64,000 nt of DNA from Minisyncoccota bacterium. Its GTDB lineage: Bacteria > Patescibacteriota > Minisyncoccia > Phycocordibacterales > UBA9973. The stretch lies in contig JAGOUX010000002.1 of NCBI GenBank assembly GCA_018061035.1, forward strand, positions 24,722 to 88,721. Reading direction: 5' to 3'. The notes below the pieces were generated by a model, which was not told where the DNA came from, did no database searches, and saw only the letters and a program-made list of their open reading frames with translations. Below, one piece after another: positions 3,390 to 52,013 of the stretch (positions are counted from its first letter, which is position 1; every line of letters starts with the position of its first letter). Position numbers and translations under genes: made by a program.

Positions 3390-3462
3390 ATGAATCCCGT
3401 TAGAAGTCTTACAGCGGGAAAATTAGTCGGTACAATTAATATTAATTAACTTCTAACGGGAT
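3390..3462 (+). promoter_or_regulatory. structured 5' leader element with a 19-codon uORF (MNPVRSLTAGKLVGTININ) and a 13-bp inverted repeat whose distal arm covers the dnaA ATG
   Basis: IR arms ATCCCGTTAGAAG (3394-3406) and CTTCTAACGGGAT (3450-3462). TATAAT at 3376-3381 places the uORF ATG (3390) near the TSS. A homologous element precedes msrB at 59892-59965. Confidence 0.4.
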
Positions 3463-4804
3463 GAATACAAAACAGCTGTGGAAAAATTGTCTCGCGGATA
3501 TTGAGACAGGCCTATCTAAGGCAAATTTCAGTACCTGGTTCAAAAATACCTCGATTCTTAAAGAAGAAGCTGGAATAATCTTTATCGGAGTACCAAATGA
3601 ATTCGTTCGAGACTGGCTTAAAAACAAATACCATAAGTTAATCACCAAAACCATCGCAGATGCTTTTGAAAACATGCGTGCGGTAGAATACATCATCACT
3701 AAAACCGAAGTTGAAAAGGATGAACCAGAAAGAACAGAAGAGGTTTTTGCAAATAAAGAGCTTCCGCTTAAGGATCTTTATATTAGCCCAGAAGACAATC
3801 TAAATCCTCGCTATCAGTTTGATTCGTTTATCGTTGGAGGCTTCAATGAGCTTGCTTATGCGGCAGGACAAGCAATTATAGATAATCCTGGTACAAAATA
3901 TAACCCATTTTTTATATATGGTGGAACAGGTTTAGGTAAAACCCACCTTATCCAAGCAATAGGAAACACTATAAAGACTAGATATCCAAATAAAAAGGTT
4001 CATTATATGACTTTGGAGAAGTTTGCGACTGATTTTATCAACTCTCTTCAAAACAACAAAGCTAATTCATTCAAAGAAAAGTATCGTAAATATGATCTTT
4101 TAATCATTGATGATATTCAATTTATTGGTAAGATGGAAAAAATTCAAGAAGAATTATTCCATACTTTTAATACTTTTCATGAGGCCAATAAGCAAATAAT
4201 CTTTTCATCCGACAAACACCCAAACTATATTCCAGAACTTGCTGATAGATTAAAATCTCGTTTTGCTGCAGGTATGATAGTAGACATATCAGAACCAGAA
4301 TACGAATCTCGTTTAGCTATTTTAAAGGTTAAATTAAGAGACCAAAACTTGGACTTAGACCAAAGCGTCGTTGAATACATTGCTGGGGCTATACAAGGCA
4401 ATATACGCGAATTAGAGGGTAGTCTAAACTCAATAGTCATGCAGTATCGACTCAAAAACAGAGCATTAACTCTTCCTGAAGTAAAAAACCTCCTTAAAAA
4501 CAACATGAGGCCAAAGAAAAATATCGCTATTAAGGATGTTGTAAAAATAGTTAGCGAACATTACAAACTCGAAGAATCTTCTGTTTATGAAAAAACTCGA
4601 AAGAAAGAAATTGTTCGAGCTAGGCAGGTGGTGATGTATCTACTTCGAGAGGATTTTAATGTGTCATACCCATTGATAGGACAGAAGTTGGGAGGGAAGG
4701 ACCATACTACAGTCATACACTCTTGTCTCAAGATCAAAGCAGACCTAAAAAACGATCCCCAGCTGATGCAGGAGTTGGAACAGATAAGAGTTATGTTTAA
4801 ATAG
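3461..4804 (+). CDS. dnaA: chromosomal replication initiator protein DnaA
   Basis: 447 aa with AAA+ Walker A GGTGLGKTHL, sensor motifs and the C-terminal DnaA-box binding domain; followed by dnaN. Confidence 0.95.
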   Translation: MNTKQLWKNCLADIETGLSKANFSTWFKNTSILKEEAGIIFIGVPNEFVRDWLKNKYHKLITKTIADAFENMRAVEYIITKTEVEKDEPERTEEVFANKELPLKDLYISPEDNLNPRYQFDSFIVGGFNELAYAAGQAIIDNPGTKYNPFFIYGGTGLGKTHLIQAIGNTIKTRYPNKKVHYMTLEKFATDFINSLQNNKANSFKEKYRKYDLLIIDDIQFIGKMEKIQEELFHTFNTFHEANKQIIFSSDKHPNYIPELADRLKSRFAAGMIVDISEPEYESRLAILKVKLRDQNLDLDQSVVEYIAGAIQGNIRELEGSLNSIVMQYRLKNRALTLPEVKNLLKNNMRPKKNIAIKDVVKIVSEHYKLEESSVYEKTRKKEIVRARQVVMYLLREDFNVSYPLIGQKLGGKDHTTVIHSCLKIKADLKNDPQLMQELEQIRVMFK

Positions 4805-4969
4805 TTGGGGAAAAGTATGGGGAAAGGTATTAGTAAAAAAGGTTTGGGTGTTGATAAAAATTTACAAATTTCCACTTTTACACAGAAAAGTAAAAAGTAG
4901 TAAAAAGTTATTAGATTAAAGTTAGACGAGAAAACAGAGAATACTTATATAAACAAAGCATAGAAATAA

Positions 4970-4978
4970 TTATCCACA
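4970..4978 (+). promoter_or_regulatory. perfect DnaA box TTATCCACA in the AT-rich dnaA-dnaN spacer (candidate oriC/DUE side)
   Basis: Exact 9-mer; the surrounding 4805-5030 stretch is extremely AT-rich with GTAAAAAG-type short repeats. Confidence 0.45.
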
Positions 4979-5030
4979 TATTAACACTACTAATAGTATT
5001 AATAGATTAAATATATAAAGATATAAACAT

Positions 5031-6128
5031 ATGAAACTGGAATGCGGAATAGAAAAAATAAAAAATGGTATTTCTCAAACAGAAAGAATAACTGGTAAGA
5101 ATCTAACTCTTCCAATCTTAAACTCAATACTTTTAATTGCTTCTGGTAAATCTTTAAAACTTAGATCAACAAACTTAAGCCTTGGAATTGAAATAGAAAT
5201 CCCAGCCAAGATTGAGAAAGAGGGAATAGTCGCGGTTTCAGGAAGTGTTCTTTCAGGAGTATTTTCCAATATGAGCTCAAACGAGAATGTTATCCTTGAG
5301 AGTACTGATGGAAATCTGTTAATAAAGACAAATAAAAATAAAATAAAACTCAAAGGGCAACCACACGAGGATTTTCCAACAATTCCTCAAGTAGAAGGTG
5401 TTGAATTTGATATTGAGGCCAAGAAAATTGTTGAGGGGATAAAGTCTGTATATTACAGCTCTTCAGTCTCTGATATTAAACCCGAGATTTCAAGTGTTTA
5501 TATTTATACCAACGACGATAATCTTGTTTTTGTTTCAACCGATTCCTTTAGGCTTGCTGAGAAAAAAATTCGGGTTAAAAATATAGAGGAAATTAACGGA
5601 ATACTTATCCCTTTTAAAAATATTTCAGAAATATTAAGAATATTTGGAGACTTCGCCGGCTCATTGAAAGTAAAGTTTAGTAAAAACCAAATGTCGTTTT
5701 CTTCCGATAACATCTATCTAACTTCAAGGATAATAGACGGAGTTTTTCCAGATTATAGACAGATTATTCCCAAAGAGCCAAAAACCGAAGCTGTGGTGTT
5801 GAAACAAGACTTATTGAGTGCTCTAAAACTCTCAAATATCTTCTCAGACAAGTTTAATCAGGTTAGTCTAGCTATTAAGCTAAAAGAAAAACTATTTGAG
5901 CTGTCATCGTTAAACAACGATATTGGCGAAAACAAAACCTACTTAGATGCAGCTATAAAAGGAGAAGATGTAGAGCTTAGTTTTAATTATAAATACTTCT
6001 TAGACTGCTTCCAATCAATTAATTCAGATAGTGTTGTGATCAAAGTCACTGAGGCTACTAGACCTATAGTAGTATCACCTGTTTCTGATACTTCATTTAC
6101 ATATCTTATAATGCCAATGAATAGGTAA
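5031..6128 (+). CDS. dnaN: DNA polymerase III beta sliding clamp
   Basis: 365 aa with three-domain clamp architecture, directly after dnaA. Confidence 0.9.
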   Translation: MKLECGIEKIKNGISQTERITGKNLTLPILNSILLIASGKSLKLRSTNLSLGIEIEIPAKIEKEGIVAVSGSVLSGVFSNMSSNENVILESTDGNLLIKTNKNKIKLKGQPHEDFPTIPQVEGVEFDIEAKKIVEGIKSVYYSSSVSDIKPEISSVYIYTNDDNLVFVSTDSFRLAEKKIRVKNIEEINGILIPFKNISEILRIFGDFAGSLKVKFSKNQMSFSSDNIYLTSRIIDGVFPDYRQIIPKEPKTEAVVLKQDLLSALKLSNIFSDKFNQVSLAIKLKEKLFELSSLNNDIGENKTYLDAAIKGEDVELSFNYKYFLDCFQSINSDSVVIKVTEATRPIVVSPVSDTSFTYLIMPMNR

Positions 6129-20890: not shown

Positions 20891-21040
20891 AAGCGCCGAT
20901 AGCTGTTTTGGTAAGTCGTTAGATTGTAAGCGCTGATAGCTGTTTTGGTAAGTCGTTAGATTATATGCGCCCATAGCTGTTTTGGTAAGTCGTTAGATTA
21001 TATGCGCCCATAGCTGTTTTGGTAAGTCGTTAGATTATAT
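20891..21040 (+). repeat. four tandem 36-40 bp repeats, each a degenerate copy of a tRNA 5' half (acceptor + D-arm: GCGCC[CG]ATAGCTGTTTTGGTAAGTCG) plus TTAGATTATAT
   Basis: Units at 20891-20926, 20927-20966, 20967-21003 and 21004-21040; the last two are identical. The array abuts the genuine tRNA-Lys 5' end. Confidence 0.7.
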
Positions 21041-21113
21041 GCGCCCATAGCTCAGCTGGTAGAGCAGATCCCTTTTAAGGATAAGGTCGTTGGTTCGATT
21101 CCAACTGGGCGCA
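21041..21113 (+). tRNA. tRNA-Lys (anticodon TTT)
   Basis: Cloverleaf by hand: acceptor GCGCCCA/TGGGCGC, D-arm GCTC-AGCTGGTA-GAGC, anticodon loop CTTTTAA, T-loop TTCGATT, discriminator A. Confidence 0.85.
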
Positions 21114-32870: not shown

Positions 32871-33176
32871 GTGATAATGACGACGACGTACAATGTTGTT
32901 CTCGAGGGTGGAAACACCCTCAAAATGTCATTCGGCGTTTCGGCGCAGAATGACGTGATTGTCCGCGACGCTGTCGCGGCGGTCAAGGCGCTCGAGCTGA
33001 CCGGTGGTAAGCTGGTCAAGCTCAACGGACCGGCGAGCCTGCCGGTCGCGTGCGCCATCGCGCACGAGGTCGGGCACCTTTACGGTGCCGTTGCCTGCTT
33101 CGACCCGAAGCTGGCAAAGTATGTCGTGGCAGTGAGCCACGACCCCGACTTCGCGGTCGGTGATCTCGTGGACTGA
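32871..33176 (+). CDS. small protein resembling Csx3/Crn3 (CRISPR-associated ring nuclease family), on a G+C-rich island
   Basis: About 100 aa with pattern GGKLVKLNGPASLPVACAIAHEVGHLYGAVACFDPKLAKYVVAVSHDPDFAVGDLV. This recalls the Csx3 core (GRAPIWLY..H..H..YDPRLG..VVVxRHHPDYPF) from memory only; strong RBS GAGGAG. Confidence 0.3.
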   Translation: MIMTTTYNVVLEGGNTLKMSFGVSAQNDVIVRDAVAAVKALELTGGKLVKLNGPASLPVACAIAHEVGHLYGAVACFDPKLAKYVVAVSHDPDFAVGDLVD

Positions 33177-33445
33177 AACATCAAATCCTGGACTCCCAAA
33201 AGGATCTAGGTCGGGTGATCATCGCATCACCCGTGCACTCGCAAGATGTGTATCTTGCCTGATGAGTCCAAAAGGACGAAAGTGTGGTTCTTTAAAAATA
33301 AAATATTCTGAAACTAGACAACTAGATTGTAAATCTATTTGTTGTTTGCTTGTCTGGTTTCAGACTAAAGGTGAAGTTGGCGACCTGAACTGCCAACATT
33401 TCACGCTCACGGCACAAGCCACGAGCACGAAAACGGGAGAGAAAA

Positions 33446-34942
33446 ATGAGAACGATCAGAATCGACACGACCAAGCGCGGTTTTGCAGCGATGTGGGAGT
33501 CGGGTGGAGGAATGACCTCCGGCGGTTCGGCTACCATCATCACTGGCAAGAATGGCGAAGCGCGGCGCCCGGTTTACATGCCACGTGGCGGGCATCTCGC
33601 CTGTGGCAATCACGCACTCATCACGGTTCACGAAGGTTTCTATGTCGTGCATGCCAGTGTGTCGCGCGGCACTCGTTCATCAGCCAGTATCTCCCGAATC
33701 GTCTCGGTGTCCGTGAAAGACATCGACGGCGAGAAGTGGGAAGCGAAGGCTGAAGTGGAGGAGGTTTATACCTTTTCCAAGGGCGAGTGGAACAAACCGC
33801 TCGAAGAGAAGTTCATCAAGGCAGTCGAGGCGGCCTTCCGTAAGGCAGGGGTGTATCACTGCCGGTCGGCCTACTACATCGACATTTCGGCGAAGCCGGA
33901 AGCCTCCGAGGCTGAGTTGACGAAACAAGCCGAAGAGACTCGCAGGCAGGACGAAGATCGTGCGCGTCTCCGGCAGGCCAAGGTTGACCGCGAAGCACAA
34001 GCCAAGGCGGAAGCCGAAGCTGCGAGCAAGGCGGCCAAGGAAGCCGGACTCGGTGCTCGTCTCGATGCGGTAAATGTTCGTCTGACGGCTCTCGGGCGCG
34101 AGCTTGTGGAGCAGGGTGAGGTTTCGTTCAAGTGGAGCTGGCAGAACCAGTACTACACTGAACAGGTCGTCGCCAACGTCGAGCGGAGCGTGACCCAGCT
34201 CGAGGCCGAGAAGATCGAGCAGGAACGCAAGCGCATCACGCGTGAAACGTTCCAGCCGAAGTTCGAGGTGTTCAAGCCCCGGATCGAAGCACTCAGTCTC
34301 ACGGTCGAGTTCGGAACGGACAGCGTCCGTCTCACTGGAGACTACTACGGGCAACCGTACTCCGATGAAGGTGTGGCGAAGTTCGCGGCCGAACTAGAAA
34401 AGCGGGAGCGGGACGCTGCCGAGGCGAGGGCAAAAGCCGACGCCGAAGCGAACTACCAACGGCGAAAGACGGAAGCGGTGGTCTTCGGGCTGCCGACCGA
34501 CATCCGCATCTGGCGTCGTCGCGGTGGTCGTACCAACGCGGGTGACGGGTGGGTCATCGGACCTAACGGCCAGGACCGTGCCAACACGGGTTGGTCGGAT
34601 CCGTACTCGCGTCGCCTTCAGCGCTACGGCGAGGGCGAGATGATCTGGGAGCAGGTGCTTCCGGGCGAGATCGTACTCAAGTGGTCGAAGTCGTCTTCGG
34701 CTGCCCCGCACGAGTTCGTGGTCGTCTACCACCCCACTGAGCCTCTCACCGAGGCTCAACTCGAGCGCATTCTGGAAATCGAGGATGAGCTGGAGAAGGA
34801 GTGGAAAAATGCTCGTGGTCTCGCTTCCGGCCTGTCGAGTCCGCCTGTCGGTGGTGGTTGGGGTCTTCTCCCGAAGTCCTCACCAAGCTCGAAAGGAGGC
34901 ACGGCGACGCTCGACGATCTCCGCTGCAAGTGGGGCGGGTGA
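33446..34942 (+). CDS. hypothetical 498-aa protein: N-terminal globular domain, Ala/Glu/Lys-rich coiled-coil (TolA-like AEAKAEAE repeats), C-terminal domain
   Basis: G+C-rich ORF with RBS GGGAGAG. It has no signal peptide or TM segment and no recognisable catalytic motif. Confidence 0.4.
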   Translation: MRTIRIDTTKRGFAAMWESGGGMTSGGSATIITGKNGEARRPVYMPRGGHLACGNHALITVHEGFYVVHASVSRGTRSSASISRIVSVSVKDIDGEKWEAKAEVEEVYTFSKGEWNKPLEEKFIKAVEAAFRKAGVYHCRSAYYIDISAKPEASEAELTKQAEETRRQDEDRARLRQAKVDREAQAKAEAEAASKAAKEAGLGARLDAVNVRLTALGRELVEQGEVSFKWSWQNQYYTEQVVANVERSVTQLEAEKIEQERKRITRETFQPKFEVFKPRIEALSLTVEFGTDSVRLTGDYYGQPYSDEGVAKFAAELEKRERDAAEARAKADAEANYQRRKTEAVVFGLPTDIRIWRRRGGRTNAGDGWVIGPNGQDRANTGWSDPYSRRLQRYGEGEMIWEQVLPGEIVLKWSKSSSAAPHEFVVVYHPTEPLTEAQLERILEIEDELEKEWKNARGLASGLSSPPVGGGWGLLPKSSPSSKGGTATLDDLRCKWGG

Positions 34943-34971
34943 TAAATTCCTTTCTGAAAGGAGGTGATAAA

Positions 34972-35115
34972 ATGTTGAAGTTCGTTGGCTTGGCCCTGTT
35001 GTTGGTGTGGGCCGGTGCGATCGCAATTACGCACAAGGCCCCCACAGAGCTCTTTTTTCTCGGCACCATCGCATTATTGGGTGGTGTTGTTGAGAACCAC
35101 TTCTCTCGCAAGTAG
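34972..35115 (+). CDS. 47-aa single-TM membrane peptide (MLKFVGLALLLVWAGAIAITHK...)
   Basis: Strong RBS GGAGGTG 7 nt upstream; G+C-rich; last gene of the island. Confidence 0.35.
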   Translation: MLKFVGLALLLVWAGAIAITHKAPTELFFLGTIALLGGVVENHFSRK

Positions 35116-38600: not shown

Positions 38601-38712
38601 GGGTTAATCATAACAATAATAGGCAGTATTCACACTTATTGACTTTTTGCATAAAAAGTGTATAATATAACGGTTAAAATGCTCTCTAGCGCTCTGAAAG
38701 GAGAAATAGATC

Positions 38713-39384
38713 ATGTCAAAGGACATGCTCGGCCCGCTGACCCGGGCGCTCGTCGGAGTTCCAGCAAAGATGCTGGGGCTCGTGCTCGATATCACCAACC
38801 GCCTCGGATCGGCGGACAGTGATACCTTCTACTCCGACCTCGCGAAGTTCGTGAGAGAGTGGAAGAAGGCAGTGGCGGTAATTCCGTCCCTGCTCGAGTT
38901 CGTCCGCACCACGACTGCGCCGGACACGAGCGAACCGTTCATCGCCAACGCTAAGTTCAAGCTGAAGAAGGACGGAGGAATCTGCTCCTACCTCGGCGAC
39001 AACTTCAATGCGTGGTTCCTCGCGGGCACCGGCAACATCGACGCTCCTGGCGGTGAGACGACGCTGACGATATCGCGGCTCACCAAGGCTTCGGTTGACC
39101 AGCCGATTCTGGACGAGCTCGGCGACAAGACCGATGTGGCACTCGTGGACATGTTTGCCAAGATGGAGGCACAGTCCAAAGGTCAGCCGGGTGAACTCCT
39201 CGTCGACGGTCGCGTGAACATCTTCTACGTTCGCGACCAGGACGGCGTCCTGCGCCCTGTCTACGTGCACTGGCTCGGCGACGGCTGGTGCGTCAACGCC
39301 TGCTCCACCGACTGCACTGCTCATTGGTATGCCGCTTACCAGGTCTTCTCTCGCAATTCTGCCCTCACATACTCGGCGCCTTAG
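38713..39384 (+). CDS. hypothetical protein on a G+C-rich insert
   Basis: 223 aa; own promoter TTGACT-16-TATAAT (38637-38664) and RBS AGGAG. It has no recognisable domain; a long antisense ORF is a composition artefact. Confidence 0.4.
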   Translation: MSKDMLGPLTRALVGVPAKMLGLVLDITNRLGSADSDTFYSDLAKFVREWKKAVAVIPSLLEFVRTTTAPDTSEPFIANAKFKLKKDGGICSYLGDNFNAWFLAGTGNIDAPGGETTLTISRLTKASVDQPILDELGDKTDVALVDMFAKMEAQSKGQPGELLVDGRVNIFYVRDQDGVLRPVYVHWLGDGWCVNACSTDCTAHWYAAYQVFSRNSALTYSAP

Positions 39385-39569
39385 GAATCAGCCGCAAGCT
39401 GAGCCTCAGACCCTGGGAATCTTGGACACTCGGTTCGCTTACGCGGGCCGGGTGTCTTTTTCGTTTTGTACAAAGTCTGTTTTATGAAGGAATATTGCTC
39501 TAAGGTACTCCTTTTAATTTTGAGGCGATGAAATTTGCATTTTAAGGCTATTTTTGCTACATTATCTCT

Positions 39570-39931: not shown

Positions 39932-40195
39932 ATGAATCATCTACTTCATTTTTATGGTACCGAATGTCCTCACTGCGTGCATATGCATGAGTTAGTGGAG
40001 CGACTGGAAAAAGAAGAGGGGATCAAAATGGAATCCCTGGAAGTCTGGCACAACAAAGACAACGAAGCTAAATTACTTGAATTAGACAAAGATCTCTGTG
40101 GAGGAGTTCCTTTTTTCTACAATACTAAAACCAATAAATGGATTTGTGGGGAAGAGTCCTACGAGGCTCTTAAGGATTGGGCACAAGACAAATAG
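39932..40195 (+). CDS. small thioredoxin/glutaredoxin-like protein (CPHC active site)
   Basis: 87 aa with a YGTECPHC motif and a thioredoxin-fold length. Confidence 0.6.
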   Translation: MNHLLHFYGTECPHCVHMHELVERLEKEEGIKMESLEVWHNKDNEAKLLELDKDLCGGVPFFYNTKTNKWICGEESYEALKDWAQDK

Positions 40196-40221
40196 TCCAT
40201 ACTCTCGATTCTAAATTTAAT

Positions 40222-41961
40222 ATGGAAGAAAAAAAAGTACAATCGAATAAACCGAGTATTTTTACGCTCTTAAAACAATACCAAGGAATGATTATTTTCC
40301 TAGTAATTTTAGCACTTCTTAGCAACATCCTGACTCTTATATTACCTAAAGTCATTTCTCATAGTATCGATGCTTTTGTTCGTGGAAACTTTATATACAA
40401 AACTGCAATTATAGAATTCATTGTGCTAGCATTTGGTATACTTATTCTCACTTTTTTACAAAATATTATTCAAACATACGCCTCAGAAAAGGTCGCCTTA
40501 AATCTACGTACAGACCTAGCTGCTAAGGTCTCTAGAAGTAGCCATTTGTTTATTCAGAAGTCCAACCCTTCGACGCTTCTCACATATCTGACCTCGGATG
40601 TAGACTCAGTTAAGATGTTTGTAGCGCAAGCAGTATCCTCACTTATTTCATCCGTGGTGATCATATTCGGAGCTAGTATCATGCTGGTAACTATTAATTG
40701 GAGACTAGGATTGGCTGTCATGGCTATTATTCCGATTATAGCTTTTACTTTTTTTACAATCCTTAGCAAAGTGCGGGTGCTTTTTGTTAAGAGCCGAGAG
40801 ATCATAGATTGGCTGAATAAGGTCATCAATGAAAGTATACTCGGAGCGCTTTTGATCAGAGTTATTAATTCTAAAAATCTAGAACATCAGAAATTTGATC
40901 AAGCGAATAGTAATGCCCGTACACTAGGACTAAAAATCCTTGGATACTTTTCGCTCATGATTCCGATCATCACTTTCGTTGCGAACCTGGGCACACTTAT
41001 AATTCTTACCCTCGGCGGACATTTTGTCATAAATGGATCCATGTCTATCGGAGATTTCACTGCGTTCAATAGCTATGTCGCTATATTGATCTTCCCGATA
41101 TTCATTATCGGATTTATGATGAACATAATTTCTCAGGCTCAAGCTTCCTACGCTCGAATCTCAAATGTTCTAACTGCTCCGGAAATATTGGATGGAGGAA
41201 ATACAAAGAAGGAAATAAAAGGGGAGATAGAAGTAAAAGATGTATCTATAAATTATGGAGAGAAGGCTGCGCTCAAGCATGTATCATTTAGTGTAAAAGC
41301 AGGCACTCGTACGGCTATCATAGGGCCAACAGCGGCAGGAAAGTCTCAGCTCCTATATCTTCTCACTGGTCTTACTGTCCCTGATTCAGGTGTCGTAGAG
41401 TACGACCATCTGCCAGTGGAAGAATACGACAGCGAAAATCTCCATCGCCAGATAGGATTTGTATTTCAAGATAGTATTATGTTCAATCTAAGCATCCGCG
41501 AGAATATTGCCTTTAGTGATACGGTTACAGATAAATCTTTGCAAGGGGCGATCGATACAGCAGAACTCCAAGATTTCCTCGGATCATTGCCGGAGGGCCT
41601 TAATACTATCGTGTCAGAGCGCGGTTCTAGTCTCTCAGGGGGTCAGAAACAGCGTATCATGCTTGCTCGTGCGCTAGCACTTGATCCCAAGGTATTGCTC
41701 TTGGATGATTTCACTGCTCGCGTAGACACAAGTACTGAGCAAAGAATTCTCGCTAATATCACAAAGAATTACCCGAACATTACCCTTGTTTCTGTTACTC
41801 AGAAGATATCTTCGGTCGAGGATTATGATGAGATTATTCTTCTCATGGAAGGAGAGGTTTTAGCAAAGGGTACACACGCGGAGCTCATGGAATCATCAGC
41901 CGAGTATGTGCAGATTTACAATTCACAAAGAAGCACCAGCCATTATGAACTACAAGCTTAA
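40222..41961 (+). CDS. ABC transporter permease/ATP-binding protein (type I exporter half-transporter)
   Basis: Six TM helices, Walker A GPTAAGKSQ, signature LSGGQKQR and Walker B LLLDD. Confidence 0.8.
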   Translation: MEEKKVQSNKPSIFTLLKQYQGMIIFLVILALLSNILTLILPKVISHSIDAFVRGNFIYKTAIIEFIVLAFGILILTFLQNIIQTYASEKVALNLRTDLAAKVSRSSHLFIQKSNPSTLLTYLTSDVDSVKMFVAQAVSSLISSVVIIFGASIMLVTINWRLGLAVMAIIPIIAFTFFTILSKVRVLFVKSREIIDWLNKVINESILGALLIRVINSKNLEHQKFDQANSNARTLGLKILGYFSLMIPIITFVANLGTLIILTLGGHFVINGSMSIGDFTAFNSYVAILIFPIFIIGFMMNIISQAQASYARISNVLTAPEILDGGNTKKEIKGEIEVKDVSINYGEKAALKHVSFSVKAGTRTAIIGPTAAGKSQLLYLLTGLTVPDSGVVEYDHLPVEEYDSENLHRQIGFVFQDSIMFNLSIRENIAFSDTVTDKSLQGAIDTAELQDFLGSLPEGLNTIVSERGSSLSGGQKQRIMLARALALDPKVLLLDDFTARVDTSTEQRILANITKNYPNITLVSVTQKISSVEDYDEIILLMEGEVLAKGTHAELMESSAEYVQIYNSQRSTSHYELQA

Positions 41962-43720
41962 TACAACTGAAACAATAGGGGAGAAGAAGAAAAAGGTGGG
42001 TACCTTGCGTGCTGTTGCAAGTTTGTGGCCTCTACTTCATGGGGAAGAGAAAAATGTCTCTTGGGCTTTTGTTGCGATCATAATCAATTCGCTTGTGAAT
42101 CTATTTGGGCCGTTCTTGATCGGAAGAACTGTGGACCACTATGTCCTCACCAAGGACTATCATGGAGTTTTCGTTTTTTCAGGAATACTGCTCGGTATGT
42201 TTGCCGTAGGACTAGTGGCAAGCTATCTTCAGACAAAATGGATGGGGTCGGTGAGTCAGCGAGTCCTGTTCCGGCTAAGGGGCACGGTGTTCAATAAGCT
42301 TCAGGAGCTACCGGTGGCTTTTTTCAATCAGAATAAGGCAGGAGATCTTATTTCTCGTATCAACAACGACACAGATAAACTCAATCAATTCTTCTCTCAA
42401 TCTCTTATGCAGTTCATAGGAAGCGTGTTCATAATGATTGGCGCGGGAATATTCCTTGTTGTCATCAACTGGCAGCTTGGTGGAGCTGCTCTTATTCCAG
42501 CAGGAATAATTCTTATTCTGACCCAAATCATGTCGCCATGGATAAAGAGGAAGAATTCCGAAAATCTAAAGAGTACTGGAGACCTTTCTGCTGAAATTCA
42601 GGAGAGTCTGAATAATTTTAAAGTCATAGTAGCATTCAACCGCCGAGACTATTTCCGCAACAAATTCGAAGAGTCCAACAAGCAAAATTATAAAACTGCA
42701 GTAGGTGCTGGAATTGCCAACAATCTTTTTGTGCCGATTTATAGCTTTGCATCGACCATAGCTCAGCTTATTATAATTACATATAGTATTTATTTAATTA
42801 CACACGGACACTTCACCCTCGGTCTTCTTATTAGCTTCCTTTCATATGTAAATAATTTTTACAGTCCGCTTCGCCAGCTTGCTGCCTTGTGGGCAAATTT
42901 TCAGACAGCATTGGCTAGTTGGGATCGTATTAATGCAATTTTGCAAATGAAGAATGACCTAGTAACTATTCCAGATGGCTCAGTGGATAGAGAAGCAAAA
43001 GATGCAGTGCTATGTTTTAAAAATGTTAGTTTTGGTTACGAGGATGGCAAAGAAATTCTTCACAATATCAACTTCACTCTAAAGCAGGGCAAGACATACG
43101 CTCTCGTCGGTCCTACAGGTGGAGGCAAGACTACTACAGCATCACTCATGGCTCGCATCTTCGATCCGACCAAGGGTACTGTGCTGTTGGACGGTAAAGA
43201 TATTCGTTCGTACGATGAAGCTGAAAGAACCAAAAAGATAGGATTTATTTTACAGGAACCATTCCTATTCACTGGTACAGTCAAAGACAATATCATTTAT
43301 GGCAATGAAGAGTATAAGGATCTCTCTACTTCGGAATTAGAGAAAGTAATTAAAGAATCAAATCTCGACAGTCTGCTTTCTTGGTTTGATAAAGGGCTCG
43401 ACACTCCTGTCGCAACAGGAGGAGATACTATCTCTCTAGGTCAAAGGCAGCTTATCGCTTTTGTCCGCGCAGTATTGCGCAAGCCGGAGCTACTTATTCT
43501 AGACGAAGCAACTGCGAATATCGATACTGTGACTGAACAGCTTCTAGAAGAAATATTAAAAAAATTACCAAATACTACAACTCGAGTTATCATTGCCCAT
43601 CGATTGAATACTATCGAAAATGCGGATGACATATTCTTCGTCAACGCTGGTGAAGTGACTGAGGCGGGTTCTATGGAGCATGCAGTAGAAATGCTCCTTC
43701 ACGGCAAGCGCAAAAGTTAA
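41945..43720 (+). CDS. ABC transporter permease/ATP-binding protein (partner half-transporter)
   Basis: Six TM helices, Walker A GPTGGGKTT, Walker B ILDEAT and H-loop; overlaps the upstream gene by 17 nt, consistent with a heterodimeric exporter. Confidence 0.8.
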   Translation: MNYKLNTTETIGEKKKKVGTLRAVASLWPLLHGEEKNVSWAFVAIIINSLVNLFGPFLIGRTVDHYVLTKDYHGVFVFSGILLGMFAVGLVASYLQTKWMGSVSQRVLFRLRGTVFNKLQELPVAFFNQNKAGDLISRINNDTDKLNQFFSQSLMQFIGSVFIMIGAGIFLVVINWQLGGAALIPAGIILILTQIMSPWIKRKNSENLKSTGDLSAEIQESLNNFKVIVAFNRRDYFRNKFEESNKQNYKTAVGAGIANNLFVPIYSFASTIAQLIIITYSIYLITHGHFTLGLLISFLSYVNNFYSPLRQLAALWANFQTALASWDRINAILQMKNDLVTIPDGSVDREAKDAVLCFKNVSFGYEDGKEILHNINFTLKQGKTYALVGPTGGGKTTTASLMARIFDPTKGTVLLDGKDIRSYDEAERTKKIGFILQEPFLFTGTVKDNIIYGNEEYKDLSTSELEKVIKESNLDSLLSWFDKGLDTPVATGGDTISLGQRQLIAFVRAVLRKPELLILDEATANIDTVTEQLLEEILKKLPNTTTRVIIAHRLNTIENADDIFFVNAGEVTEAGSMEHAVEMLLHGKRKS

Positions 43721-43737
43721 TCGTGTGTCTCTCTTGC

Positions 43738-43763
43738 ACATTTACGCTATCGCGTATACATGC
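43738..43763. promoter_or_regulatory. operator-like site ACATTTACGCTATCGCGTATACATGC (copy 1), overlapping the cas2-like gene promoter
   Basis: Near-identical to the copy at 44178-44205; internal dyad symmetry (CAT...ATG ends); TATAAT at 43772-43777 just downstream. Confidence 0.45.
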
Positions 43764-43801
43764 AATGGGTGTATAATTTACACATGCCTTACTATAAGGG
43801 T

Positions 43802-44161
43802 ATGCGAGTAAATGGTTTCGGCTTGCCAACCTTTAAAGATAATAGTAAAAGCCGCGTAAAGCAGAAGAGTAGGAAAAGGAACATCTACCACACTACCTTT
43901 TCTTCTCCGTTTGAAAAGGATTCACCCAAGAACCTAATTTTGATGTATGACGTCGCTGAAGAGAAAAAGAAGGAGAGGGATTGGTTTCGTCGGCAACTCA
44001 AAAACTTTGGTTTTACAATGATCCAAAGAAGTGTCTGGGTCGGTCCTTCGCCTCTACCTACAGAGTTCCTAGACTATGTTAAAGTAATTGGCTTGAAAGA
44101 CAATCTTAAGACTTTCAAATTGGCTAAAGCTTATACAGGGAAGGAGAGCGTATTTAATTAA
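43802..44161 (+). CDS. Cas2-like small protein (solo, no cas1 or CRISPR array nearby)
   Basis: Core LILMYDVAEEKKKERDWFRRQLKNFGFTMIQRSVWV parallels the Cas2 N-terminal motif (ILMFDM...ER..FRKFL...GF.M.QFSV). ATG at 43802 chosen because earlier in-frame ATGs lie inside or upstream of the -10. Confidence 0.4.
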   Translation: MRVNGFGLPTFKDNSKSRVKQKSRKRNIYHTTFSSPFEKDSPKNLILMYDVAEEKKKERDWFRRQLKNFGFTMIQRSVWVGPSPLPTEFLDYVKVIGLKDNLKTFKLAKAYTGKESVFN

Positions 44162-44177
44162 ACATAAAATCTGAATT

Positions 44178-44205
44178 ACATATTTACGCTATCGCGCATA
44201 TATGC
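44178..44205. promoter_or_regulatory. operator-like site ACATATTTACGCTATCGCGCATATATGC (copy 2), upstream of the 44281 gene promoter
   Basis: Direct repeat of 43738-43763 with a 2-nt insertion; TTGACG-18-TACTAT promoter-like hexamers follow at 44229-44252. Confidence 0.45.
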
Positions 44206-44280
44206 TTTTTATTGTTCTTGCTTGACGGAAGGTATCAGGGGGGGGTACTATTAGGTTGTTATTAATTAACTAATAAAAAT

Positions 44281-44706
44281 ATGTCTACAGGAAACCCAAG
44301 TTTTCCCAATCCACAAGATGGAAAAAATCGTGCAGAAACAGAAAAGAAGCAGCCAGATAGTCAAGTCGAAAAAATAAGAGAATATAATGCAGTTGTTAGG
44401 GAGCTTAATCCTTTAATTATTCAAATTAAAGAACTTGATGCCGCTCGAGAGCTTTACCTGGACGCTGTGGGTGGTACTTGGTCTAAGCCACTACCTCCTG
44501 GTCTCGTGGGGGAGGACTGGTCTCATGTATCTACTGGAAACTTGCCTAATGATATTAAAACTGCAGTATTACATGGACTCGAAACAACTTTCGAAGACCT
44601 GGTTAATAGAAATAGTGAGCAAAAAGTTGAAGTGAGAGCCAGAGAGCTTGCTGCTAAGGCACAAAAGCTTTTACAAGAAGCTGGTATGGATAGAAAATCT
44701 ATTTAG
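44281..44706 (+). CDS. hypothetical protein
   Basis: 141-aa ORF followed by a strong terminator. It has no recognisable motif. Confidence 0.35.
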   Translation: MSTGNPSFPNPQDGKNRAETEKKQPDSQVEKIREYNAVVRELNPLIIQIKELDAARELYLDAVGGTWSKPLPPGLVGEDWSHVSTGNLPNDIKTAVLHGLETTFEDLVNRNSEQKVEVRARELAAKAQKLLQEAGMDRKSI

Positions 44707-44716
44707 GATGAGCTAA

Positions 44717-44750
44717 AACAAAAAACCACCCGCGAGGGTGGTTTTTTATT
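44717..44750. terminator. bidirectional rho-independent terminator shared by the 44281 gene and the convergent csp gene
   Basis: AAAACCACCC-GCGA-GGGTGGTTTT with flanking A- and T-tracts. Confidence 0.55.
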
Positions 44751-44757
44751 TGATAGC

Positions 44758-49513: not shown

Positions 49514-50833
49514 ATGAACAAATTCAAGTTTTTTGCAGTCCTCGTGTTGTTCTCGGTTTTCTCAGCAGCTTGTCCGGAGAAGTTCAAGCGTCCGTGCAGC
49601 GACGATGAGTGTAAGACCACATCGTCGCCACTCGCGCCTACTACTGCTGTTTTGGTGGAAGTTTGCGTTTCGGCAAATGCCAGCGCTTCCGCAATGGCAG
49701 TGTGTACGTATGGTGTTGCAACCGGTACCGGTAGCGGTTCGGCTAAAGTTTGTGCAATGGTCTCTCCAGAGAATCACGAGGCGTGGAAGAAGGAGAACCT
49801 GGCTGTCGCGCAAAAGGACGCGAATGCTCAAGCCACAGCAACTGCTGTTTGTCTTGCGCCACCTGTTGTTCCTCCGACAGCTCCACCCACCGCTCCGCCA
49901 CCCACATCGCCACCACCCGCAATCGACGTGTGCCCGAACATCTCGGGCGTGCAGGAAACCATTCCTTCGGGAATGATCAAGGATGGGAACGGTAATTGCG
50001 TGGTTCCGCCAGTAATCACTGCTCCTACGTGCTCAGCACAGGGGAGCGTCCAGGCAGGTAATGCTGCAGTTTTCACCGCAACGGGAGGGAATGGTACATA
50101 CACTTGGTTTGGCAACGGTTCGCCGTCGTCAGCAAGTGGCTCTGTGTTCTCAACAACATACGCGAGCGCTGGCACTTACTCGGTGACGGTCAGCTCAGCA
50201 GGAATGAGTAATACCTGCAGTGTCGTTGTCACCACAGTTCCGCCGCCGGCGTGTGTTTGGTCGGTTGATCCGGTGATTCACTTCACCGCATCGGGCGGCC
50301 AAGGTTCGGCATCAGTTATTCCGAATCGGTCGGACTGTCCACAACCGACGTGGACTTCAAGCGGTTACCCAAGCTGGGTGACAGTGAATAGATCGTCTGG
50401 ATCGGGAGCTGGCTCTATTGGAGTCACTGCTCCATCAAACCCGACGACCTCGATTCGCAGCCAGGTCGTCACAGTGACGGCTTCGGATGGCAACCACACG
50501 GTGACCATTACCCAGGATGCAGGCGTGGCAAGCTGCACTTGGGCAGTGGAAAATGCCACGATCGGCTGGCAGGGGGGCGAAGTTAGCGCCTCGGTCACAC
50601 CAGGCATCGGTTGTTCTGGTAACTGGTCGGCAACGACCAACAACCCTCAACAGCTTGACCTTTTGACTACAGGCGGTTCGCCGGTGATTACAATCAACGG
50701 CATAAACGCAGGGACCGTCAGGGGGTCGGTGTCGACTAATAACACCACAATCATTCGGACCTTTACCATCACGTGGACTGGTCCGGGTGGAATTTCTAAG
50801 ACTATTACGGTTACGCAAGCCGCGCATCCGTAA
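49514..50833 (+). CDS. secreted Pro/Thr/Ser/Gly-rich protein with Ig/PKD-like repeats, on a G+C-rich insert
   Basis: Signal peptide MNKFKFFAVLVLFSVFSAAC, PPTAPPTAPPPTSPPP linker and repeated Cys-containing beta-rich modules; RBS GGAGAGG; conspicuously G+C-rich. Confidence 0.5.
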   Translation: MNKFKFFAVLVLFSVFSAACPEKFKRPCSDDECKTTSSPLAPTTAVLVEVCVSANASASAMAVCTYGVATGTGSGSAKVCAMVSPENHEAWKKENLAVAQKDANAQATATAVCLAPPVVPPTAPPTAPPPTSPPPAIDVCPNISGVQETIPSGMIKDGNGNCVVPPVITAPTCSAQGSVQAGNAAVFTATGGNGTYTWFGNGSPSSASGSVFSTTYASAGTYSVTVSSAGMSNTCSVVVTTVPPPACVWSVDPVIHFTASGGQGSASVIPNRSDCPQPTWTSSGYPSWVTVNRSSGSGAGSIGVTAPSNPTTSIRSQVVTVTASDGNHTVTITQDAGVASCTWAVENATIGWQGGEVSASVTPGIGCSGNWSATTNNPQQLDLLTTGGSPVITINGINAGTVRGSVSTNNTTIIRTFTITWTGPGGISKTITVTQAAHP

Positions 50834-51137
50834 CTCCAGTTCTTTCACATCAAGTCCTCAGAAAGGAGGCACATCAAAGGGCCCTATCGCTATCGCGAAG
50901 GGCCCTTTAATAATTTAGGTACAGATTTTTAATACTCGTAAAGTTTTAGTGATAAGAAATTACTAATTTTCCAATTAAACATAATTTTAATATTCAAATA
51001 AAAAACCATTAAAAAATTTTCTAATGGTTTTTTATTTCTTATCATCCACTCTACAAAATCATAACGTTTTATTTATAACTTTGTAGAGTGGAGAAGAGGG
51101 AGGGGTTGACCTCGCATCTTCTCCGATAGATCTTGCA

Positions 51138-51800
51138 TCAGCGCTTAGCGCGAATGCAATTGGCGTACCAGTAGTAGGTGCTACCTGCTCCTACCACAAG
51201 GCTGCCGGCTACCCATTTCCATGGAAAGCCTTTACCCTTTTTTTCTGGGAGGACGGCGTCTTTGCCGTCGCGACCATCTCGGCCGGGAGGTCCAGGAGGA
51301 CCAGGGATTCCTTCCGGGCCTTGCGGTCCAGCGGGACCCACGTCTCCTTTGGGGCCGGCTGGTTTTTCCAGCGGCACCCACTCTCGAATCGTGTTCCAGC
51401 ACGACGCGTCCAAGTACGGGACACCGTTGATGTCAAATACGAGATTGTCTCCAATTTCGTGGATGACCCAGGTGTATTCGCCGGCCTTTGTGATCTTGGA
51501 CTCACGGACCGACTCGAAGGCACAACCCGCTGTGGGTGAGCCCTTGGCGTTGGGGTGCCGTGGCTTGTCGTACTTCGGATGGTTCCTGTAAGAGCGGTAG
51601 TTTCCGCTTTTGTACGCGGCGACGCATGACTCTTTCGAGTCGAAGAAGGTCATCGTCTCGATGGCCTCCGGCGTGTGCTGGGCCGCGACGGCCTTCTGTG
51701 CGGCATCGACGAAGTCCTTCTTGGTCAATGTTGACGCGGTGAGGGTGTTCATCGTGCCCGTGAGGCACAGGACCAGCATCAGTGCAAAAAACTTCTTCAT
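51138..51800 (-). CDS. secreted collagen-like (G-X-Y)n repeat protein with C-terminal TM anchor, G+C-rich
   Basis: Signal peptide; GPKGDVGPAGPQGPEGIPGPPGPPGRDGRDGKD gives 11 consecutive GXY triplets; C-terminal WKWVAGSLVVGAGSTYYW hydrophobic segment. Confidence 0.55.
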   Translation of the reverse strand: MKKFFALMLVLCLTGTMNTLTASTLTKKDFVDAAQKAVAAQHTPEAIETMTFFDSKESCVAAYKSGNYRSYRNHPKYDKPRHPNAKGSPTAGCAFESVRESKITKAGEYTWVIHEIGDNLVFDINGVPYLDASCWNTIREWVPLEKPAGPKGDVGPAGPQGPEGIPGPPGPPGRDGRDGKDAVLPEKKGKGFPWKWVAGSLVVGAGSTYYWYANCIRAKR

Positions 51801-51995
51801 TTCCGGACTCCTTGAATTGTGGGGAACAGGGGACGGGCGGGCGGAATGCCAGCCACACTCCTAATAATTATATCACTTTATATTAAAATGTCAATGTTAA
51901 ATTTGTATTATTTACATATCTAAAAAATGGGTGTTTTGGCTCAAAAAAACAAAAAAGAATACCGCAGACGGTACTCCTTTTTGTTTCCACACATT

Positions 51996-52013
51996 GTGCC
52001 CTCACCAGGAATC
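51996..52013. repeat. 18-bp duplicate of the tRNA-Arg 3' end (GTGCCCTCACCAGGAATC), att-like direct repeat
   Basis: Identical to 52083-52100 within the tRNA 87 bp away; the flanking pseudo-T-arm is degenerate. Confidence 0.5.

Follow-up and report, generated by a model that had tools for sequence, protein, structure and literature searches.

Repressors that act through several operators are well known from phage lambda, where the OR and OL operators of CI bracket the cI region, and from LacI with its O1, O2, and O3, and looping between operators over a distance is a known way to tighten autoregulation. Short palindromes are also known from the repetitive extragenic palindromic (REP) elements, which occur in hundreds of copies per genome together with transposase-like genes of the HUH-tyrosine type, the REP-associated tyrosine transposases (RAYTs), and from the pdif modules of Acinetobacter. 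In E. coli and Pseudomonas, the phenylacetyl-CoA-responsive repressor PaaX (PF07848, PF20803, and PF08223; PDB 8A39 and 3L09), whose Cas2-like middle domain is shared by the protein described here, binds inverted repeats as a dimer and represses its own promoter by occluding it and blocking RNA polymerase (PMC9493321). The present work deals with a gene for a protein of 125 amino acids lying between two copies of a palindromic site, which we call O1 (upstream) and O2 (downstream), in a 64-kb stretch of contig JAGOUX010000002.1 of a Minisyncoccota bacterium (the window, always taken at its full length). We propose, with a probability of roughly 0.55 and on the grounds of sequence comparison, that this gene encodes a dimeric sequence-specific DNA-binding protein which regulates its own leaderless promoter via O1 and probably the next promoter via O2, and the best explanation of the unit as a whole is a regulatory module that is complete in itself and variably present in bacteria of the Paceibacteria/Nomurabacteria type, which belong to the candidate phyla radiation (CPR).

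An earlier note on this DNA had pointed to two copies of a dyad-symmetric, operator-like repeat, one overlapping the promoter of a cas2-like open reading frame (ORF) and the other just upstream of a TTGACG promoter, and these claims held up in all their parts. The repeat extends to 30 nucleotides (nt) with an identity of 26/30 in an ungapped alignment, both copies are imperfect palindromes, O1 is centred over the gene's own promoter, and the TTGACG box after O2 is followed at 18 nt by TACTAT. The 22-nt repeat core, TTACGCTATCGCGYATAYATGC, occurs exactly twice in the window with up to three mismatches permitted, and it had no match in 100 shuffles of the window, none being expected by chance, so a fortuitous recurrence of the motif does not account for the pair. 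One site stands on each side of the gene, at a distance of about 442 bp from each other, and O2 is an asymmetric variant, TACGC TATC GCGCA, kept in that form throughout the lineage. No compositional (G+C) anomaly of the site-gene-site unit was found within the window. Elsewhere in the window, about 50 nt past the stop codon of the ORF at 49514–50833, a hairpin (AAAGGGCCC...GGGCCCTTT, 50880–50913) holds in its loop CGCTATCGCG, the 10-nt core of the dyad site, and may be either a chance occurrence or a degenerate relative of it.

The same layout recurs in other genomes. We compared 53 GTDB loci, with protein identities of 41–82%, and further loci from metagenome contigs, all of them given L numbers here. 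In nearly all of the 53 GTDB loci one palindrome directly precedes the −10 box and another copy follows the gene, 9–69 nt past the stop codon and sometimes overlapping it. The palindrome measures about 28 bp, with the core ACGC-YATR-GCGT and arms that vary by lineage on both sides together, as in ACATATTTACGCTATAGCGTAAATATGT, CCCCATATACGCCATGGCGTATATGGGG, CCAAGTTCGCCATGGCGAACTTGG, and ACATCTACGCTATAGCGTAGATGT. Across 104 sites aligned without gaps, mirrored positions were complementary in 83.4% of cases versus 65.6% in shuffles, double changes were present in 14 of the 16 mirrored pairs and filled 341 cells versus 135 in shuffles, and none of 500 shuffles reached the observed values of either measure, so that the symmetry is conserved with compensatory changes across the 53 genomes. 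The position relative to the promoter is fixed as well: a perfect TATAAT is found in 38 of 52 homologous loci, its end lies 6 nt before the ATG in 32 of them and 6–9 nt in 48, and the dyad centre falls 22–23 nt before the hexamer, at about −34.5, in 43. Finally, the non-coding sites are 85–95% identical between the window and relatives in which synonymous sites are saturated, and near-identity under such conditions means that the sites are under selection. A third copy of the locus's own palindrome was observed inside the gene itself in three loci (L024:4071, L029:4080, and L033:4080), in a variable linker where it encodes SEVRHGEL.

The gene had been listed as an ORF of 133 amino acids at 43760–44161. 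Given that the homologues are 119–128 amino acids long and that the perfect TATAAT falls inside the first codons of the listed ORF, the true gene very probably starts at the ATG aligned with the start of the homologues, position 43784, and thus encodes 125 amino acids. No recognisable −35 hexamer is present at its promoter, where the palindrome fills that position, and the predicted mRNA is probably leaderless. The gene is under purifying selection (pN 0.10–0.15 and pS 0.77–0.96, the latter saturated, versus relatives). A leaderless layout, with a TATAAT-like hexamer 6–7 nt before the ATG and no ribosome-binding site, was also seen at gatC downstream of the unit in L028, L039, and L052, and seems to be common in this lineage.

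Palindromes of this kind could also act as hairpins of RNA or single-stranded DNA, that is, as terminators, transcript stabilisers, or REP-like elements, the protein being either unrelated or hairpin-binding; the stems predicted for some copies are very stable, at −19 to −29 kcal/mol (z −10 to −12), and many copies lie just past stop codons, also between convergent genes. Nevertheless, the central tetranucleotide, which such a hairpin would leave unpaired as its loop, is self-complementary in 38 of 52 upstream and 32 of 52 downstream sites (70/104, with 6% expected) and switches symmetrically among TATA, CATG, CTAG, and GATC. G·T and A·C mismatches number 21 vs. 12 in the upstream sites and 25 vs. 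25 in the downstream ones, without a consistent strand bias, and the asymmetric form of the site is found in either orientation among close relatives. The folds of the two window copies are weak, at −6.9 kcal/mol (z −3.5) for the first and −3.9 kcal/mol (z −0.9) for the second, the conserved downstream variant retains a destabilising A·C mismatch on the mRNA strand, and O1 lies upstream of the transcription start. The ordinary terminators of this genome, G+C-rich and with T runs like the one that closes the module (Table 1), are unlike the palindromes; a scan for intrinsic terminators at the window palindromes found none, and neither did any Rfam family match. We consider the hairpin reading improbable and have rejected RNA structure because no Rfam family matches, the centre is symmetric, wobble pairs lean consistently to neither strand, and folding is weak for the copies in the window. 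Taken together with the mismatches, the flips of orientation, and the dissimilarity to terminators, the evidence points to duplex DNA as the form that would be recognised, most likely by a symmetric dimer.

As to the protein, it has a Cas2-type fold, and it is neither a CRISPR Cas2 nor PaaX proper. The Cas2-like motif that the earlier note had read in the ORF is confirmed by Pfam CRISPR_Cas2 (PF09827; 31.5 bits, E 2e-7, cut-off 23.8), and PaaX_M (PF20803) scores better still (54 bits, E 1.8e-14, cut-off 24), so that the assignment to the Cas2 family stands for the fold and falls for the CRISPR type. The Cas2 models align only with their beginnings, namely positions 3–42 of 74 for PF09827, positions 3–40 of 96 for TIGR01573 of NCBIfam (31.1 bits, cut-off 24.5), and just the first ~40 positions for those of PADLOC. 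The full PaaX model, TIGR02277, gives 22 bits vs. a cut-off of 264.55, no Pfam match to the N-terminal winged-helix domain of PaaX was found in the 125-amino-acid protein, and the C-terminal ligand domain (PF08223) is missing, the protein stopping a few residues past PaaX_M. An AlphaFold2 model built from 55 homologues, with a mean predicted local distance difference test score (pLDDT) of 77.8 and 84–90 over the Cas2/PaaX_M part, has the order of strands and helices of a Cas2 fold (E49–55, H59–74, E78–81, E84–87, H93–102, and E108–117). Its top Foldseek matches are Cas2, VapD, and E. coli PaaX (8a39), with probabilities up to 0.99 and E values of only 0.02–0.07, so the Cas2/VapD-fold similarity appears in profile searches and in structure prediction alike; a sequence search of the PDB gave marginal Cas2 matches. 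Y55-D56 is invariant and aligns with the YD of SSO8090, with the D at the Cas2 catalytic position.

The short-form family comprises more than 1,500 database clusters, mainly from Nomurabacteria, Paceibacterota, and Parcubacteria, whose members are named “CRISPR-associated endonuclease Cas2” or “PaaX” by annotation pipelines, and in an exhaustive search, with longer relatives counted, 1,224 clusters were obtained when clustering at 50% identity, many of those with stronger matches having a length of 155–200 amino acids. Relatives of ~160 amino acids have weak winged-helix Pfam matches ahead of PaaX_M, and the 125-amino-acid form retains the YKGxxVNxFGLP motif and the basic stretch of their N-terminus; judged by this alignment, its N-terminal segment is a remnant of a winged helix-turn-helix. 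Among the regulators that contain PaaX_M, the protein is a new variant of reduced length whose site-gene-site layout is unusual, and no description of this Cas2-fold/palindrome unit was found in the literature searched.

These results bear on the view that the gene encodes a stand-alone Cas2/VapD-like nuclease, either left over from a CRISPR system or serving as toxin in an addiction or defence module, with the repeats as incidental regulatory sequences. The Cas2 models do score above threshold, Foldseek places Cas2 and VapD first, and the unit is variably present, with a RelE/ParE-like pair (judged from its translation by eye) at the equivalent place in L095. This view is made highly improbable by the partial alignment of the Cas2 models, the far higher PaaX_M score, the derivation of the family from winged-helix regulators, and the lack of a conserved partner gene. 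The free-standing nature of the gene, as the earlier note had it, was borne out: there is no CRISPR-like array in the 64-kb window or in 969 kb of related loci, and no Cas1 match among the 20 larger window ORFs tested, on which grounds a CRISPR remnant was rejected. A phage origin was rejected too, since no homologues were found on viral contigs.

What ties the sites to the gene between them is that each locus has its own type of site. The two copies at one locus match each other at 23.4 of 28 positions vs. 17.5 of 28 for other loci, and lineage oddities are present in both copies of a locus, such as CTAG in L044, TGACC in L043, and non-palindromic arms in L049. Paralogues within one genome have different palindromes (L004/L027, L023/L026, L025/L029, and L011/L041), and long-form paralogues are likewise bracketed by palindromes of their own (L040, L045, L049–L051, and L099:7346–7828). 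More pointedly, site divergence correlates with how far the N-terminal segments have diverged (r 0.68; partial r 0.58 when the Cas2 domain is controlled for, with p ~5e-4 by permutation), and weakly with the divergence of the Cas2 domain (partial r 0.19). The locus-matched copies, the paralogue-specific palindromes, and this correlation together make the encoded protein the natural candidate binder, and since site divergence follows the N-terminal segment, a PaaX-like layout is suggested in which this segment would be the reader and the Cas2-fold domain the dimeriser. The long form of L099 just mentioned, of 160 amino acids with winged helix and PaaX_M, lies 2–3 kb from the short form near an L28 gene, with a similar arrangement in L089, L117, and L146; CCACTTTCAGACGGCCGTCTGAAAGTGG, the palindrome of this long form, stands past the stop codon, with a related sequence ahead of the −10 box.

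The symmetry, fixed positions, and conservation of the sites, their gene-specific types, and the fold are seen in the comparison itself; that this protein is what binds the sites, that it dimerises, and in which direction it regulates are what we infer. In the proposed mechanism, a symmetric dimer of the 125-amino-acid protein would bind the palindrome of ~28 bp by its common core and lineage-specific arms. O1 would take the −35 place of the gene's own −10-only leaderless promoter, and a dimer sitting there would control the access of RNA polymerase, in the simplest case as autorepression of the sort that PaaX exerts at its own promoter. Protein bound to O2 would probably modulate the next promoter, or loop to O1, or both.

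The participation of the next promoter, P2 in Table 1, has some support in the window's lineage, where the site would lie at roughly −66 of it. The order of −35 box, G-run, and −10 box after the downstream site is also found in L002, L004, L007, L008, L021, and L095, with runs of 8–10 G, and in L022 both boxes are kept and the G-run is not intact; in the relatives, this promoter precedes a small variable ORF and then fusA. The distance from the site centre to TTGAC is 30–32 nt in 10 of 50 distinct contexts, and it is because this spacing is held across diverged spacer sequences that co-regulation gains its support. L031, with another type of palindrome, has the same spacing (31 nt), and in the gatC group the site lies 46–48 nt before the gatC −10 box in three loci. 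The earlier note had the cas2-like gene co-regulated with the 141-amino-acid gene that follows, and this can be upheld for the promoter, by its spacing in at least ten contexts, and not for the gene as a conserved partner. The 141-amino-acid protein has no relatives in the protein database, no more than its first 11 residues (MSTGNPSFP) being found again in ORFs equivalently placed in L011 and L139, and the ORFs directly downstream of the unit in other genomes are mutually unrelated, for which reasons a conserved partner gene was rejected. In L139, the site, the promoter, and the MSTGNPSF-type ORF are present without the Cas2-like gene.

The commonest surroundings of the unit are rpsL-rpsG-[unit]-(small ORF)-fusA, found in 11 of the 53 GTDB loci and in many metagenome loci. 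It also recurs upstream of gatC, and upstream of cspA on the opposite strand with an ABC-F gene, as in the window (L068 and L030), and in L135 the neighbours are ribosomal and translation genes. In the window, the ORFs upstream (40177–41961 and 41906–43720) were taken as an ABC exporter pair, and for the pair as such this reading of the earlier note agrees with the ABC_membrane and ABC_tran domains recorded by Pfam for the same gene on the public contig L134. The pair is incidental as a context, in view of the usual ribosomal one: an ABC exporter was not found as a conserved neighbour among the relatives, and this candidate was rejected.

Several findings weigh against the regulatory proposal, some of them in the protein and the sites and others in the distribution of the unit. 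In the alignment with the ~160-amino-acid relatives, helix 1 is missing from the 125-amino-acid form together with about 30 residues corresponding to the recognition helix and the wing, so that the short protein would need an unfamiliar mode of reading DNA, which is our main reason for caution, and model confidence over the N-terminal segment is low (pLDDT 56–67). Some palindromes are perfect over 40–50 bp, longer than a small dimer needs, and the spacing between O2 and the next promoter is conserved just in a subset of lineages. It may then be that another protein, for example a full-length winged-helix + PaaX_M paralogue, binds the palindromes, and that the short protein modulates it through the Cas2-fold dimer interface; besides the lost helix and wing, this would suit the genomes of the short form that also encode the long one 2–3 kb off, as in the four loci named above. 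We hold this to be rather unlikely, given that the long paralogue has its own, different palindrome, that each short-form paralogue goes with its own site type, that site divergence follows the N-terminal segment of the short protein itself, and that there is no second family member in the 64-kb window.

With regard to distribution, ten distinct loci were sampled through S7 proteins 92–97% identical to that of L004, and the unit was absent from the S7/EF-G junction in all ten of them. In five, rpsG and fusA stand 6–14 nt apart with no palindrome, and the remaining ones contain unrelated small ORFs or a beta-lactamase, with a lone downstream-type site in L139. This absence means that the unit is an accessory insertion or is frequently lost, and is not a fixed part of the operon. 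The earlier note had entertained a tiny insertion carrying the cas2-like gene, with the repeats as its target-site or terminal repeats; the variable presence is in keeping with an insertion, and target-site duplication was rejected because the same palindrome brackets the gene in unrelated genomic contexts. Going by gene order, the rpsG/fusA junction is an insertion hotspot in these bacteria, marked as such by a variable unit within an otherwise invariant rpsL-rpsG-fusA operon. Its contents in L136–L148, L095, and L147 were seen to be nothing, small unrelated ORFs, a beta-lactamase, a RelE/ParE-type pair (by eye), or the Cas2-fold unit.

A metagenome scan with the 22-nt motif of the lineage found 93 sites. 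Homologues adjoin 46 of these, and 27 copies in 22 contexts, each covered by at least 600 nt on each side, have no homologue adjacent. Most of these separate copies are placed directly behind stop codons or within coding sequences. Seven loci have them behind or between genes for zinc-ribbon proteins of ~590 amino acids, four have them in the gap from uvrC to a SpoU methylase gene, and in two contexts they follow an xerC/D-like gene. As a good −10 hexamer is missing at the O1 spacing in all 22 contexts, a role of the separate copies as promoter operators was rejected. In one genome with two copies of the unit, their shared homology stops at the outer edge of the downstream palindrome, and in L084 a two-gene insert lies between identical 34-nt copies of the site. 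The ~590-amino-acid proteins, often encoded in tandem pairs, carry zinc-ribbon-like CxxC motifs at both ends and have no Pfam match (L064, L072, L080, L090, L094, L103, and L118). The 28-bp palindrome was also observed in frame within a reverse transcriptase gene (with a motif like that of diversity-generating retroelements, by eye), RsmI, and a ComF-like gene (L075:860, L077:1197, L108:2247, L130:2238, and L079:628).

The palindromes might, accordingly, be ends for recombination or mobility similar to dif/pdif or REP/RAYT, the gene and its two sites being a cassette that is copied, excised, or exchanged, and the Cas2-fold protein a nuclease or accessory factor. The empty junctions, the edge of homology, and the L084 insert speak for such a role, as do the in-frame copies inside unrelated genes and inside the gene itself, the 11-6-11 layout that the sites could have, the copies after the xerC/D-like gene, and the invariant aspartate at the Cas2 catalytic position. 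On the other hand, the mostly symmetric centres would make recombination directionless, differing site types coexist in one genome, and the strict placement at −34.5 of a promoter is not expected of element ends. Copy number is low: contigs of 307 and 354 kb have no match to the motif beyond the two sites of the gene, and separate copies elsewhere are few. An empty site retaining a single palindrome was rejected, as none was seen at the five compact S7/EF-G junctions, and a Xer/dif link was rejected because the xerC/D-like gene adjoins the site in two contexts only. The absence of homologues from viral contigs points the same way, and so does the lack of any known recombinase signature: for a HUH-tyrosine (Y1) transposase, there was no Pfam, NCBIfam, or PADLOC match and no invariant histidine pair among the conserved columns. 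Mobility ends as such are, in our estimation, unlikely. A small chance is also given to a cassette system of CPR bacteria bounded by palindromes, with the protein as its specificity factor; small gene units with palindromes at their ends would then undergo insertion, duplication, or exchange at hotspots such as rpsG/fusA, and palindromes would occasionally land in frame in genes. This small chance is shared with a weaker form, in which long palindromes would be read by a truncated winged helix together with a Cas2-fold dimer. We keep to the regulatory module as our preferred reading, and the coordinates of its parts and of the features downstream are collected in Table 1.

Table 1. The site-gene-site unit and the features that follow it, in positions of the window.
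Feature	Position	Strand	Remarks
O1, upstream dyad-symmetric site	43734..43763		axis between 43749 and 43750; centre 22 nt before the −10 hexamer, at about −34.5 of the predicted leaderless transcript
−10 element	43770..43777	+	TATAAT at 43772–43777, with TG immediately 5′
125-amino-acid protein gene	43784..44161	+	stop codon included; start aligned to homologues
N-terminal segment, residues 1–48	43784..43927	+	motif YKGxxVNxFGLP, basic stretch SRVKQKSRKRN; candidate DNA-reading part
Cas2/PaaX_M-type domain	43928..44134	+	Pfam, NCBIfam, PADLOC, AlphaFold2, Foldseek; probable dimerisation module
O2, downstream dyad-symmetric site	44176..44205		axis between 44191 and 44192; 30 nt past the stop codon, 30 nt before the next −35 box
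P2, promoter-like site	44222..44251	+	TTGACG, 18-nt spacer with eight-G run (44238–44245), TACTAT
141-amino-acid ORF, possible regulated target	44281..44706	+	downstream of P2
Canonical two-way intrinsic terminator closing the module	44716..44751		G+C-rich stem between A and T runs

Some other features of the window were observed in passing. About 40 kb from the unit, dnaA and dnaN, with yidC upstream, lie at 3461–6128, and the presence of these three genes means that the window adjoins a probable replication origin. Four tandem 37-nt units at 20893–21052, each joining 12 nt from the start of the adjacent tRNA gene to 25 nt of upstream sequence, end in a real tRNA (21041–21113); having no spacers, this array is not a CRISPR. 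The window has a G+C content of ~39%, with richer islands at 33000–35000 (55–61%), 38700–39400 (~47%), and 50000–52000 (51–52%), which may be foreign DNA or assembly chimeras, and the stretch at 38.7–39.4 kb has long ORFs on both strands without a Pfam match.

The interest of this locus comes from the organisms, given that CPR/Patescibacteria are not culturable alone and very few of their regulators are understood, and here the regulator, the exact predicted binding sequence, and the promoter are combined in one 470-bp piece. Furthermore, the family is routinely mis-annotated as “CRISPR-associated endonuclease Cas2”, which inflates the CRISPR counts of these lineages. If it is true that the protein reads DNA without a recognition helix, the Cas2/PaaX_M fold would recognise DNA in a way that is new for it, and if the cassette were instead the right explanation, a system comparable to REP/RAYT or dif modules would be based on a Cas2 fold in place of a transposase or recombinase fold.

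In comparison with the known systems, the window protein resembles in fold VapD (HP0315, PDB 3UI3), a Cas2-like endoribonuclease, with a Foldseek probability of 0.95 and a TM-score of only 0.35–0.38, and it differs in having no match to the family model and no VapX-like partner. From the Cas2 of CRISPR systems (PF09827 and TIGR01573), it is set apart by the extra N-terminal DNA-binding remnant of 48 residues, with no cas1, array, or spacer-acquisition context found. With REP/RAYT and pdif, the unit shares a small gene between short palindromes, paralogue-specific palindrome families, intergenic copies after genes, and site-bounded segments; it departs from them by having no adjacent recombinase, few copies per genome, symmetric centres, and one site fixed on a promoter. 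With lambda CI and LacI, it has in common, as far as the sequence tells, that a putative repressor gene stands between copies of the palindromic operator on which its product would act, with one copy at the gene's promoter, although the protein fold is unrelated and there is a single site per side in the window unit. PaaX, in turn, has ~300 amino acids, and in contrast to it the window protein lacks the N-terminal winged helix, the C-terminal ligand domain, and a paa operon; its sites are contiguous 28-bp palindromes, while those of PaaX read TGATTC-N27-GAATCA. The dimeric binding of inverted repeats and the repression of its own promoter by PaaX (PMC9493321) are, for all these differences, what the predicted architecture of the window sites is consistent with.

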